From an uncultured Gammaproteobacteria bacterium (GTDB lineage Bacteria > Patescibacteriota > Microgenomatia > Daviesbacterales > UBA10151): DNA of 64,000 bases. Positions 44,160 through 46,854 of this stretch are shown piece after piece (positions within the stretch are counted from its first letter, which is position 1; each line of letters opens with the position of its first letter). The notes under the pieces are model-generated. The model saw only the letters and a program-made list of their open reading frames with translations, searched no databases and was not told the origin of the DNA. The stretch is taken from contig CAZWRN010000003.1 of assembly GCA_964636275.1 (NCBI GenBank), forward strand, positions 4,423-68,422, written 5' to 3'. The position numbers and the translations under genes were made by a program.

Positions 44160-45062
44160 ATGCCTAATACCAGAGAACTCAGACGACGGATCAGATCTGT
44201 CAAAAATACCGCTCAGATCACCAAAGCGATGCAAATGGTCGCTGCTACCAAGATGCGCAAAGCCCAAAACCAAGCTATGGCCGGTCGACCTTACAATTTG
44301 ACACTTAATGAAGCCATGACTCTTCTATTACCCAAACTTAAAGACAACAACCATCCACTTCTCAAAGAGCAAACAAAAGGCAATTCAGCAGTGTTACTCC
44401 TTTCAACTGACAAAGCTCTTTGTGGTTCTTTGAATACCAATTTATTTAGAGCGACTCTCAATTTTATGAAAGATCAAAAAAATAATGTTTTTTACACTCT
44501 TGGTAAAAAAGGTCGACAGTTTTGCGTCAGGTCTGGCTATGATCTAGCTGCAGATTTTGAAAATTCGGACTTAGTCACCTTTAGAACAGCTTCACAAATT
44601 GCTAGACTCGTCACCAAGAGCTTTTTGTCCGGTGAAATAAAAGAGCTTTATATTGTCTACCCGGATTTTGTCTCAGCTCTCAGACAGGAGCCCAAAATCG
44701 TTCGTATTTTACCGGTCGATTTTCAAAACTTAGTTCAAACGCTTACTCCAGAGTTAGCTAACAAAAGTCGTCAGTCGTCAGTCGTCAGTCATCAGCAAAA
44801 CAACTCCGAGTTTCTGTTTGAACCCTCCATTGATGAACTACTGGATTTCATCTTAAACCACTTTGTTCAGGTCAAAATATTCCAGGCTATGATGGAAACC
44901 AAAGCCTCTGAACACTCAGCTAGGATGATCGCCATGCAAAATGCGACAGATAATGCAAAGGAGCTTGTATCTGACCTCACTCTTGCGTATAATCAGACAC
45001 GACAGGCTGCAATTACCAGTGAATTGTTAGAAATAACATCAGCCCAAGCAGCGTTAGAATAG
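44160..45062 (+). CDS. atpG: F0F1 ATP synthase subunit gamma
   Basis: N-terminal RIRSVKNTAQITKAMQMVAATKMRKAQ and a C-terminal helix. Confidence 0.9.
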   Translation: MPNTRELRRRIRSVKNTAQITKAMQMVAATKMRKAQNQAMAGRPYNLTLNEAMTLLLPKLKDNNHPLLKEQTKGNSAVLLLSTDKALCGSLNTNLFRATLNFMKDQKNNVFYTLGKKGRQFCVRSGYDLAADFENSDLVTFRTASQIARLVTKSFLSGEIKELYIVYPDFVSALRQEPKIVRILPVDFQNLVQTLTPELANKSRQSSVVSHQQNNSEFLFEPSIDELLDFILNHFVQVKIFQAMMETKASEHSARMIAMQNATDNAKELVSDLTLAYNQTRQAAITSELLEITSAQAALE

Positions 45063-45098
45063 AGTCAAGTCGCAAGGATCAAGAGTCAAGGATAAGGG

Positions 45099-45461
45099 AT
45101 GAGAAATAACCAAGGGTACAGGACATTAATTGCTTGGCAGTTAGCGAATAAATTAGCTCATTTGGTTTATGACATAACAGCAGATTTTCCGAAATCTGAA
45201 ATATATGGCTTAACATCTCAAATGAGAAGATCTGTACTATCTATTGGCGCAAATATTGCAGAAGGATATAGTAGACAGAGTTTAAAAGACCGTGGACATT
45301 TTTATCAGATAGCTACGGGATCTTTAACTGAGTTAGAATTTTTTATAGATTTTGCATTTGAGCGAAATATGCTTAATAAAAAAATTTATGAAGAAATTGT
45401 TATCTTACAAGAAGAATGTGCAAAAGTCTTGAATGGATTATCAAAATCCACTAGACTCTAG
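45099..45461 (+). CDS. four-helix-bundle protein (family typical of 23S rRNA intervening sequences) inserted between atpG and atpD
   Basis: WQLANKL...[34 protein letters not shown] motifs. The gene is flanked by inverted-repeat sequences (see finding). Confidence 0.85.
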
Positions 45462-45486
45462 ACTCTTGCCACTTAAAACTAAATTT

Positions 45487-46854
45487 ATGAACAAAGGTAA
45501 AATCATACAAATTATTGGTCCGGTTGTGGACGTTCAATTTGAGGAAGGTAAACTTCCAGCTATTTACGCAGCACTTGAAACCACAGTTGGCAAAGAAAAA
45601 TTGGTGCTAGAAACTCAACAGCATTTAGGGGAAGGTGCAGTTCGAGCTGTGGCAATGTCTTCAACTGATGGTCTGCAAAGAGGTACTGAAGTGGTAGACA
45701 CAGGTGCTCCTATTTCAGTACCAGTTGGTGATGAAGTATTGGGTCGAATCTTTAATGTCTTGGGAGATGCGGTCGATAACAAACCTGCAGCCAAAGCCAA
45801 AAAAAGACTCCCTATTCATCGTCCGGCTCCATCATTTGCCGAACAATCTACCACCGCTGAAGTATTTGAAACCGGTATTAAAGTTATCGATTTGCTAGCT
45901 CCTTTTATTAAAGGTGGTAAAGTTGGTCTGTTTGGTGGTGCTGGTGTAGGTAAAACAGTGCTGATTCAGGAGCTGATCCGAAATATCGCGGCTGAACACG
46001 GAGGATATTCAGTATTTGCCGGTGTTGGTGAAAGAACCCGCGAAGGAAACGATCTGTATCATGAAATGACAGACTCCAAAGTTATCGACAAAACAGCCAT
46101 GGTCTTTGGACAGATGAATGAGCCCCCCGGAGCCAGACAGCGAGTCGCTTTGTCTGCTTTAACTATGGCAGAAGAGTTCCGAGATGCTCAGGGCAAAGAT
46201 GTGCTATTTTTCGTAGACAATATCTTCCGATTTTTACAGGCTGGTTCTGAAGTATCTTCACTGCTCGGACGTATTCCATCTGCGGTAGGTTACCAGCCAA
46301 CTCTGGCAACTGAAATGGGTGCTTTGCAGGAAAGAATCACTTCCACCCAAAAAGGCTCCATCACTTCAGTACAAGCCGTCTATGTGCCAGCAGATGATTA
46401 CACCGATCCAGCTCCAGCTGCCACTTTTGCTCATTTGGACTCCACTATCGCGCTGGAAAGATCTTTGGCTGAGCAGGCTCTTTTCCCGGCTGTAGACCCA
46501 CTAGCCTCTTCTTCCCGGGCTTTGGATCCAAACGTAGTTGGCCAGGATCACTACGATGTAGCTATGGAGGTGCAAAAGATCTTACAGCGCTACAAAGATT
46601 TGCAGGATATTATCGCTATCTTGGGTATGGAAGAGCTGTCTGATGAAGACAAACTGACCGTTTCACGAGCCCGAAAAATCCAGCGATTTTTGACTCAGCC
46701 ATTCTTTGTCGGCGAAGCTTTCACCGGTATCGCTGGTAAATATGTCTCACTCAAAGATACTATCAAAGGCTTTAAAGAGATTATCGCCGGCAAACACGAC
46801 AAGACCCCCGAACAGTCCTTCTACATGAAGGGCACTATTGAAGAGGTTAAGTAA
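45487..46854 (+). CDS. atpD: F0F1 ATP synthase subunit beta
   Basis: GGAGVGKT Walker A and DELSEED-like region. Start trimmed to [16 protein letters not shown]. Confidence 0.95.

Follow-up and report, generated by a model that had tools for sequence, protein, structure and literature searches.

What is a gene for a 120-aa four-helix-bundle (4HB) protein doing between atpG and atpD, in the middle of an F-type ATP synthase operon? The question is raised by 64 kb of a Candidatus Daviesbacteria (Patescibacteria/candidate phyla radiation, CPR) contig (CAZWRN010000003.1, positions 4,423 to 68,422; this whole stretch is referred to as the window, and all positions are counted from its first letter). 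In this operon the gene order is atpB-E-F-H-A-G, the 120-aa open reading frame (ORF), and then atpD. An initial annotation of the window noted that the ORF is bracketed by complementary sequences, and proposed that it had entered the loop of a stem-loop that ancestrally preceded atpD, i.e., that the architecture of a 23S rRNA intervening sequence (IVS) had been transplanted into a protein-coding operon. Our analysis confirms the observation and supports the interpretation in part. The ORF and its flanks probably constitute a self-contained IVS-type cassette, in which a PF05635 4HB gene lies between inverted arrays of about five heptamers whose arms pair in the transcript. We demonstrate the anatomy of this element and its potential to pair, we show that the insertion is derived and not ancestral, and we show that the ORF takes its arms along when it appears at new loci.

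The 4HB gene (45099-45461) lies between atpG (ATP synthase gamma, 44160-45062; PF00231, E = 4.5e-89) and atpD (ATP synthase beta, 45487-46854; assigned by a profile match and the ORF list), all on the forward strand. The atpG stop codon TAG (45060-45062) is immediately followed by the first left-hand heptamer, and atpD keeps its native start codon (MNKG...), the same one used in relatives that lack the element. Profile searches assigned the product to PF05635 (23S_rRNA_IVP; E = 1.6e-32, 112.3 bits against a cutoff of 33.8) and to TIGR02436 (E = 1.1e-30, 106.1 bits against a cutoff of 24), which bears out the family named in the initial annotation. An AlphaFold2 monomer model (pLDDT 96.3) consists of four long helices, and its top structural match in Foldseek is Xcc0516 (2GSC; TM 0.93, rmsd 0.9 Å), to which the protein is also related in sequence (phmmer, 3.7e-16). 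BT_0352 (2RLD) matches at TM 0.79, and looser matches include phage Avd and Avd within a diversity-generating retroelement (DGR) ribonucleoprotein (4DWL and 8UB7). Both 2GSC and Avd are known from the literature to be pentamers. The protein carries the motif R-x3-S-x3-N-x2-E(G) that has been stated for Xcc0516 homologues (PMC3936711), and residue 44, S48, N52, E55 and G56 are invariant across 37 homologues.

We considered whether the protein could itself be the DGR accessory protein Avd and rejected this assignment, since it scored 27.1 bits against a cutoff of 80 for NF033474 and 35.2 against a cutoff of 40 for PF22296, and its neighbours are atp genes. No reverse transcriptase and no template/variable repeat pair was found near the 4HB gene, and no family among the PADLOC defence models matched the protein at E ≤ 0.01. 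The 64-kb window contains no rRNA (Rfam detects one tRNA only), and a scan for promoters and terminators inside the atp operon gave no signal above chance.

Both flanks of the 4HB ORF are arrays of about five tandem heptamers, with the form NNNCAAG upstream and its reverse complement downstream. This tandem build was overlooked in the first reading of the locus. The left (5′) arm (45063-45098, forward strand) comprises AGTCAAG, TCGCAAG, GATCAAG, AGTCAAG and GATAAGG, followed by a single G; it is purine-rich and holds the Shine-Dalgarno-like AAGGA/AGGG of the 4HB ORF. The right (3′) arm and its tail (45448-45486, forward strand) comprise CCACTAG, ACTCTAG, ACTCTTG, CCACTTA and AAACTAA, followed by ATTT, and reach the atpD start codon. 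The final 14 nt of the 4HB ORF, including its stop codon, fall within the right arm. From the first heptamer to the end of the tail, the whole element (45063-45486) measures 424 nt.

These arms, whose complementarity the initial annotation had noted, fold together far better than shuffled controls. In the minimum free energy (MFE) fold of a 438-nt stretch, positions ~45066-45088 on the left pair with positions ~45453-45474 on the right (z = -3.5), and none of 100 shuffles folded as well. Folding the flanks with the ORF removed gave z = -3.95, and the flank-to-flank duplex reached -27.5 kcal/mol against -11.8 ± 3.0 for shuffles (z = -5.2). The predicted stem has 18 pairs over 21 positions plus an apical 4-bp helix, and orthologs form at least 21 pairs. 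In the MFE fold, AUCC at the top of the stem pairs with, and would sequester, the Shine-Dalgarno-like GGAU of the 4HB ORF.

An ORF-less sibling of this element, also reported at the outset, lies between atpF and atpH (42080-42161, forward strand) and folds into a hairpin of -26.2 kcal/mol (z = -3.8). It consists of a left array (42081-42115; TGGCAAG, TCGCCAG, AGTCAAG, TGACAAG and GATTTTT), a loop (42116-42123), a right array (42124-42156; CCTAG, ACTCTTG, ACTCTAG, TCACTTG and AAACTAA) and a tail (42157-42161; ATCTT). Alignment to the flanks of the 4HB gene gave 76% identity across 41 nt for the left half of the sibling and 88% across 34 nt for its right half. The two tails (CACTTGAAACTAAATCTT-ATG and CACTTAAAACTAAATTT-ATG), one before atpD and one before atpH, are nearly identical, just as first described, and exact copies of AGAGTCAAG are restricted to the atpF|atpH and atpG|atpD junctions in the window. 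In addition, the left arm of the sibling (42077-42103) and the right arm of the cassette (45449-45475) show 81% complementarity across 27 nt. This match is better than the cassette's own distal pairing, and on paper it would allow a long-range interaction over 3.3 kb that spans atpH-atpA-atpG.

Did a hairpin stand at these junctions before the gene arrived? The closest genomes found with atpG were Daviesbacteria metagenome-assembled genomes at 54-61% identity. Where Daviesbacteria lack the element, atpG and atpD are separated by a spacer of 4-8 nt (TGAT-ATG, TAAC-ATG and similar), and atpF and atpH abut or lie no more than ~14 nt apart, with no hairpin. Spacers this short indicate that both hairpins are derived insertions, and the idea of a stem-loop that ancestrally preceded atpD was thus not upheld. 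Closer relatives keep the 4HB gene at atpG|atpD, with protein identities of 100%, 88%, 77% and 73%. The arms of these orthologs pair at least as well as those in the window (z = -8.6, -7.6 and -6.4 for the loci numbered L084, L085 and L086 in our comparison), so relatives that carry the gene at this junction also carry complementary flanks. Among the four atp orthologs, the ORF-proximal half of the stem is invariant, and the distal half varies through rearrangement of whole heptamers, which allows no reliable alignment.

More distant relatives carry other insertions at atpG|atpD, namely an 83-aa ORF (L006, 3875-4243), a 77-aa ORF (L009, 5931-6168) and an array of four AAGTATW units (L012). Small genes seem to have landed repeatedly at tight operon junctions such as these. 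A 91-aa ORF (789-1064) is also present at atpA|atpG in L085; for the small ORFs of L006, L009 and L085, no Pfam family scored above its curated cutoff. The L006 spacer additionally holds an ATTCCC-N8-GGGAAT palindrome. Outside Daviesbacteria, the best atpG matches (44-49% identity, loci L013-L083) are nearly all from Verrucomicrobiota and not from other Patescibacteria.

Homologues of the 4HB protein with 55-72% identity are found at four further junctions that have nothing to do with atp: in a pilin-domain (PF18895) cluster of a type IV secretion system (L090 and L175), between the genes for the N- and C-terminal parts of transketolase (L177), between a Wzy-like gene and glyA (L179-L184), and between a peptidyl-prolyl isomerase (PPIase) gene and nrdR (L171). 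The last of these cassettes belongs to a genome (JACPKP01) whose own atp operon (L004) lacks the element. Cassettes at all four junctions have AGAGTCWAG upstream and CTWGACTCT downstream, which is the heptamer family of the atp cassette. Because the same heptamer family flanks homologues at four unrelated loci, the arms belong to the gene cassette and not to the atp locus. Arm pairing was significant in 7 of the 9 clade members tested; the two exceptions are L175, which has a complete ORF-less hairpin in its upstream flank, and L171, in which the left array lies within the called ORF. The motif pair AGAGTCWAG/CTWGACTCT was confined to cassette flanks and three ORF-less copies, and was essentially absent from ~90 kb of other Daviesbacteria DNA. 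Furthermore, in a comparison of 2761 locus pairs with unrelated neighbours, array similarity stayed at a baseline of 24-28 when the proteins were less than 60% identical, and increased to 55 at 60-80% identity and to 81 above 80%. Array similarity therefore rises with protein identity even at non-orthologous loci, demonstrating that the ORF and its arrays move as one unit.

Several variants of this layout were seen among the homologous loci. In L175 (JAJYNW010000015.1), the complete ORF-less hairpin (left array, loop, right array and tail; 2922-3000) lies directly upstream of the 4HB ATG, and a second copy of the right array and tail follows the ORF; the orthologous L090 has the plain left-ORF-right layout. 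The L175 arrangement resembles either a right arm that was duplicated or a stage intermediate between empty and filled. L090 (JACPDA010000004.1) contains a second 4HB paralog on the minus strand (2300-2800), 1.3 kb from the first, with TTAGGG-like heptamers (TTTAGGG, ACTAGGG and GTTAGGG) on both sides in direct and not inverted orientation. Lastly, a 144-aa ORF in L131 (4404-4838), pilin-like by eye at its N-terminus, is bracketed by CTGTATT/AATACAG arrays like those of the adjoining 4HB gene, and a further 4HB paralog on this contig (891-1292) has a different array family. The arrays around this non-4HB ORF imply that arrays can bracket other cargo, or that consecutive spacers each have a hairpin.

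Both the ORF and its arms are under sequence constraint. In every informative comparison dN/dS of the 4HB ORF was 0.08-0.18, and the 4HB protein is functional because it is under purifying selection. Comparison of the window with L084 revealed that 57 of 61 non-coding arm positions are identical (34 of 36 in the left arm and 23 of 25 in the non-coding part of the right arm), while dS was 0.70 for the ORF and 1.21 for atpD. The arms are thus about ten times more conserved than synonymous sites.

How far does this layout extend beyond the clade of the atp cassette? We surveyed distant 4HB family members (33-50% identity) from JGI metagenomes, calling flank complementarity at p ≤ 0.01 and clustering loci at 90% identity. 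Shuffles and neighbouring genes served as controls; a cross-locus control was dropped because related elements at different loci inflated its values (99th percentile 54). Complementary flanks were detected in 49 of 69 loci and 42 of 61 clusters (69-71%), as opposed to 13 of 173 neighbouring genes (7.5%), and four of those 13 were further 4HB paralogs. Period-7 arrays occurred at 1.9 per kb beside the 4HB ORF and 0.2 per kb elsewhere in the loci, and period-8 arrays at 1.73 and 0.02 per kb, respectively. Overall, a period-7 or period-8 array was found by Tandem Repeats Finder (TRF) in 83 of 148 4HB flanks compared to 9 of 249 random windows. The array unit differs by clade (for example, GGAGTGTA, TTGGTCA-like, CAGACTA, CTGTATT and CTGAAGT). 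Array copy number has a median of 3-4 and a range of 2-6.5, values that do not separate the idea of five repeats per pentamer from a simple requirement for stem length. Of the two arms, the G-rich one precedes the 4HB ORF in 39 loci and follows it in 7, and 27 of 44 loci sit between two co-oriented genes. These results demonstrate that the layout is general across the 4HB family; an arrangement first taken to be exceptional is in fact typical, given that ~69% of distant members share it.

Rfam scans of 20 homologous loci found no rRNA context, and a search of every locus for 23S and 16S rRNA motifs gave no signature beside a 4HB gene, except for one match with two mismatches in L127 that Rfam did not confirm. 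Homologues on RefSeq plasmids are almost all cyanobacterial and have heptamer arrays on their flanks. In Nostoc punctiforme (pNPUN02), (GGAGTCA)n and its complement flank the 4HB gene (NPUN_RS35280) and fold at -60 kcal/mol; a Calothrix NIES-22 plasmid has the same flank layout; and in Geminocystis, the best period-7 array of the plasmid flanks its sole annotated 4HB gene. The type III-B CRISPR operon on a plasmid of Picosynechococcus sp. PCC 7003 has a 4HB cassette (L188, 1495-1851; gene AWQ21_RS15215) with GGAGATA-type arrays precisely between its cas10/cmr2 and cmr3 genes. This position agrees with an earlier report of 23S_rRNA_IVP genes inside cas operons (PMC3936711), and suggests that those genes are insertions and not cas components.

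The closest known counterparts are the ORF-bearing IVSs in 23S rRNA of Leptospira, Coxiella burnetii and Brucella, which encode a protein of the same family (PF05635, 'S23p') from an ORF within an inverted-repeat stem. The Coxiella IVS is 428 nt long, encodes S23p, has three or four GACAGAT heptamers in its 5′ arm and forms a 28-bp stem, which RNase III cuts at its middle (PMC4990558). The likeness to the 424-nt element described here extends to the tandem heptamers of the 5′ arm and to the availability of an RNase III gene: rnc, a candidate processing enzyme, is encoded in the window at 27249-27920 on the reverse strand (PF14622, 3.6e-34; PF00636, 4.1e-22; dsrm, 1.1e-14), where the initial annotation had placed it. 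There are also differences. The host transcript is a protein-coding operon here and not helix 25 or 45 of 23S rRNA; the Coxiella ORF is reported to be decaying and probably untranslated, with no physiological consequence for the host detected (PMC4990558), whereas the ORF here is under purifying selection (dN/dS ~0.1); and cleavage by RNase III, shown for the Coxiella stem, is a prediction for the element here. The analogy to an rRNA IVS therefore stands insofar as a 4HB ORF lies inside an inverted-repeat stem built of heptamers as in Coxiella, but not insofar as the ORF was thought to have dropped into an ancestral atp hairpin. In light of the survey, the rRNA IVS looks like a special case of a general cassette. 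In CPR bacteria, 23S_rRNA_IVP genes are rare inside rRNA insertions (PMC11270868).

Other systems share parts of this architecture. Heptamer arrays, often in convergent pairs within operons, are unexplained repeats in Xanthomonas (GGGAATC) and, as the STRR repeats, in Nostoc/Anabaena (GGGGA(C/T)T) (PMC4692102), and TAACTGA heptamers are repeated in Beggiatoaceae (PMC4679880). Like the arrays described here, STRR-type heptanucleotide repeats are short tandem arrays of 3-5 or more units, intergenic within operons, with convergent pairs able to form hairpins; however, they have been described as free-standing and their role is unexplained, whereas the arrays here bracket a gene and move with it. 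Repetitive extragenic palindromic (REP) elements, their REPIN doublets and the associated RAYT transposase genes resemble the cassette in that a gene lies between inverted copies of a short repeat, with ORF-less hairpin doublets elsewhere in intergenic DNA. They differ in that RAYT is a Y1 (IS200/IS605-like) transposase while the 4HB protein matches PF05635 only, in that their repeat is a single palindrome and not a tandem heptamer array, and in copy number, which is low here (one filled and one empty copy in 64 kb). Finally, Avd of DGRs has the same fold and belongs to the same superfamily as the 4HB protein, but the 4HB protein falls below the cutoffs of the Avd models and its neighbours are atpG and atpD, with no reverse transcriptase or template/variable repeats. 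Avd forms pentamers and functions within a ribonucleoprotein whose RNA is transcribed from the Avd locus. By analogy to Avd, the only characterised relative, the 4HB protein is most likely a pentamer that binds RNA encoded beside its own gene. We found no literature that links 4HB genes to flanking heptamer arrays outside the Coxiella IVS, and no paper stating that inverted heptamer or octamer arrays move with 4HB genes as a family-wide rule, although our coverage was incomplete and subscription journals were mostly outside the search.

Heptamer arrays are not limited to the cassette and its sibling. Period 7 is the main tandem period in the window, with 10 regions compared to 0-1 for periods 5, 6 and 8-12. 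The atpB-atpE spacer (41153-41302) holds an ORF-less hairpin of TTTCGAA units (41159-41281, forward strand; TRF period 7; -33.7 kcal/mol, z = -4.8), and the atpH-atpA spacer (42552-42670) holds another of TTAGAAA units (42558-42654, forward strand; TRF period 7; -21.4 kcal/mol, z = -3.1). These two belong to sequence families other than that of the cassette. Heptamer-array hairpins are thus present at 4 of the 6 atp junctions of this genome, and relatives lack them. Arrays also occur within atp coding sequences. An AGTCGTC array in atpG (44766-44795; 4.3 copies, 95% matches) encodes part of ...KSRQSSVVSHQQNN..., a stretch whose length and sequence vary by eye among the translations of relatives, and has AGTC in common with the cassette heptamers. 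An AATTAGA array in atpH (42420-42451; 4.6 copies) is complementary to the TTTCGAA-type array of the atpB-atpE spacer. Elsewhere in the window, the top-scoring heptamer array is (TAATTTC) at 27094-27131 (5.4 copies), between the RNase III gene and an ORF that resembles ribosomal protein S16 (26629-27087; named by eye from its sequence). Other spacers that fold well beyond shuffles lie at 59991-60136 (z = -4.7), 61055-61134 (z = -3.0), 12070-12159 (z = -2.9) and 3443-3519 (z = -2.7), and a (CTACCAA)n array lies at 61210-61240; none of these has a 4HB gene near it.

How might such a cassette be tolerated in an essential operon? We propose that it entered the very short atpG|atpD spacer in one piece, in a single Daviesbacteria lineage, and was then inherited vertically, and that the atpF|atpH hairpin is a copy of this element without the ORF, or derives from it. 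The cassette would be co-transcribed with the atp operon, and its arrays would pair in the transcript into a stem of ~21-28 bp that loops the insert out. Such a stem would return the upstream stop codon and the downstream start codon to within ~12-25 nt of each other, as would the empty hairpin for atpF and atpH, and translational coupling across the junction could thereby be preserved. The stem would also be a substrate of a size suitable for RNase III, and may be cleaved by analogy to the Coxiella 23S rRNA IVS. Structural insulation of this kind would account for the tolerance of cassettes both in rRNA helices and at tight operon junctions. The stop codon of the 4HB ORF lies inside the right arm, which means that translation and stem formation would compete.

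Several observations weigh against a cassette that acts through RNA pairing. The stem in the window is imperfect, with three 1x1 mismatches among its 18 pairs. Mismatches between arms show no excess of G:U (26 G:U against 35 A:C; 7 against 4 in a stricter set) and hence no wobble signature of selection at the RNA level, and copying at the DNA level could maintain the complementarity. The constraint on the arms accordingly does not demonstrate selection specifically on RNA pairing. Across the family, arrays are in direct orientation in 8 of 61 clusters and ~18% show no significant relation, so a hairpin is not obligatory for 4HB genes. The nearest genomes that lack the element are distant (atpG 54-61% identical), and the order of events (insertion of a whole cassette or stepwise assembly) is therefore inferred from paralogous loci rather than by comparison to a matched empty site. 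The element encodes no mobility enzyme, and neither copy shows a target-site duplication at its borders. Co-transcription and cleavage by RNase III are deduced from sequence, and cleavage might be costly, as it would sever atpD from the rest of an essential operon. In a separate inspection of the element borders by eye, an integron attC origin was rejected, as no GTTRRRY core sites were seen there.

Some of these points would be expected if the cassette were instead a mobile element at the DNA level, similar to a miniature inverted-repeat transposable element or a REPIN, with terminal inverted repeats and moved in trans by an enzyme that is encoded elsewhere, for which the 4HB gene is cargo or a cofactor and RNA pairing is a by-product. 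Genomes are polymorphic for the presence of the cassette at several unrelated insertion sites, ORF-less copies exist, and arm mismatches without a G:U excess fit maintenance of the DNA. RAYT genes are flanked by inverted REPs, with REPIN doublets elsewhere, a layout that resembles the cassette. We nevertheless consider this explanation unlikely, because there is no transposase or recombinase in or beside the element and no visible target-site duplication, because the strand bias of the G-rich arm (39 versus 7) and the co-orientation with host operons point to constraint on the transcript, and because the cassette has remained at the same junction while dS exceeded 1. A locus-specific stem-loop that ancestrally preceded atpD (and atpH), with the 4HB ORF inserted into its loop later, would explain why an ORF-less hairpin of the same sequence family occurs at atpF|atpH. 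L175, where the ORF sits beside a complete ORF-less hairpin, shows that an ORF can adjoin a pre-formed hairpin, and loop-targeted insertion is known for some insertion sequence elements. Relatives, however, have spacers of 4-8 and 0-14 nt with no hairpin, the same arms are found at four other loci, array similarity tracks protein identity, and the motif is missing from other Daviesbacteria DNA, all of which make such an origin quite improbable.

A host-beneficial regulatory module is also conceivable, in which the hairpins set the stability or translation of atp cistrons and the 4HB protein is an RNA-binding regulator of these hairpins. REP elements and intercistronic stem-loops tune differential stability or translation in other operons, heptamer-array hairpins are found at 4 of 6 atp junctions, both arms and ORF are under purifying selection, and Avd-like pentamers bind RNA in the DGR ribonucleoprotein. 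We doubt this explanation strongly, however, since the cassette also occurs in operons with quite different functions (transketolase, pilins, glyA, nrdR and cmr), related Daviesbacteria atp operons have none of these hairpins, and no physiological effect of the Coxiella IVS was detected (PMC4990558). Lastly, heptamer repeats could simply be common through replication slippage, with an ordinary small gene between two of them by coincidence. Period-7 arrays do dominate the window, even inside the coding sequences of atpG and atpH, but chance would hardly yield flanking arrays that are mutual reverse complements (z = -5.2), complementary flanks in 69-71% of family members compared to 7.5% of neighbouring genes, arrays that travel with the ORF, or arms that are about ten times more conserved than synonymous sites, and we give this explanation almost no credence. 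Together, these data favour a self-contained IVS-type cassette whose inverted heptamer arrays pair in the transcript.

The insertion at atpG|atpD shows that an essential operon of a compact CPR genome can accommodate 424 nt of inserted sequence at a junction of 4 nt. Of greater interest than this single insertion is the family-wide flank rule. Although 4HB genes are annotated by the hundred thousand, we know of no role for them outside DGRs. We tentatively suggest, as one possibility among others, that PF05635 genes with inverted 7-8-nt arrays represent a widespread undescribed class of cassettes that colonise operon junctions, cas loci and rRNA helices, that the pentamer recognises its cognate arrays in RNA, in the way that Avd binds the RNA of DGRs, and that ORF-less derivatives are the source of ORF-less rRNA IVSs and STRR-type repeats. 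If true, this would give the long-unexplained heptamer repeats an origin, and three loose ends, namely the origin of rRNA IVSs, the function of 4HB genes and the intergenic heptanucleotide repeats of cyanobacteria, Xanthomonas and others, would perhaps be one phenomenon. The same layout is present in the tractable Nostoc punctiforme (pNPUN02) and in the cmr operon of Picosynechococcus PCC 7003, which makes RNase III processing and binding of the protein to its repeats directly testable. IVS anatomy, i.e., a 4HB ORF in a heptamer-repeat stem, is a property of the gene family and not of rRNA.

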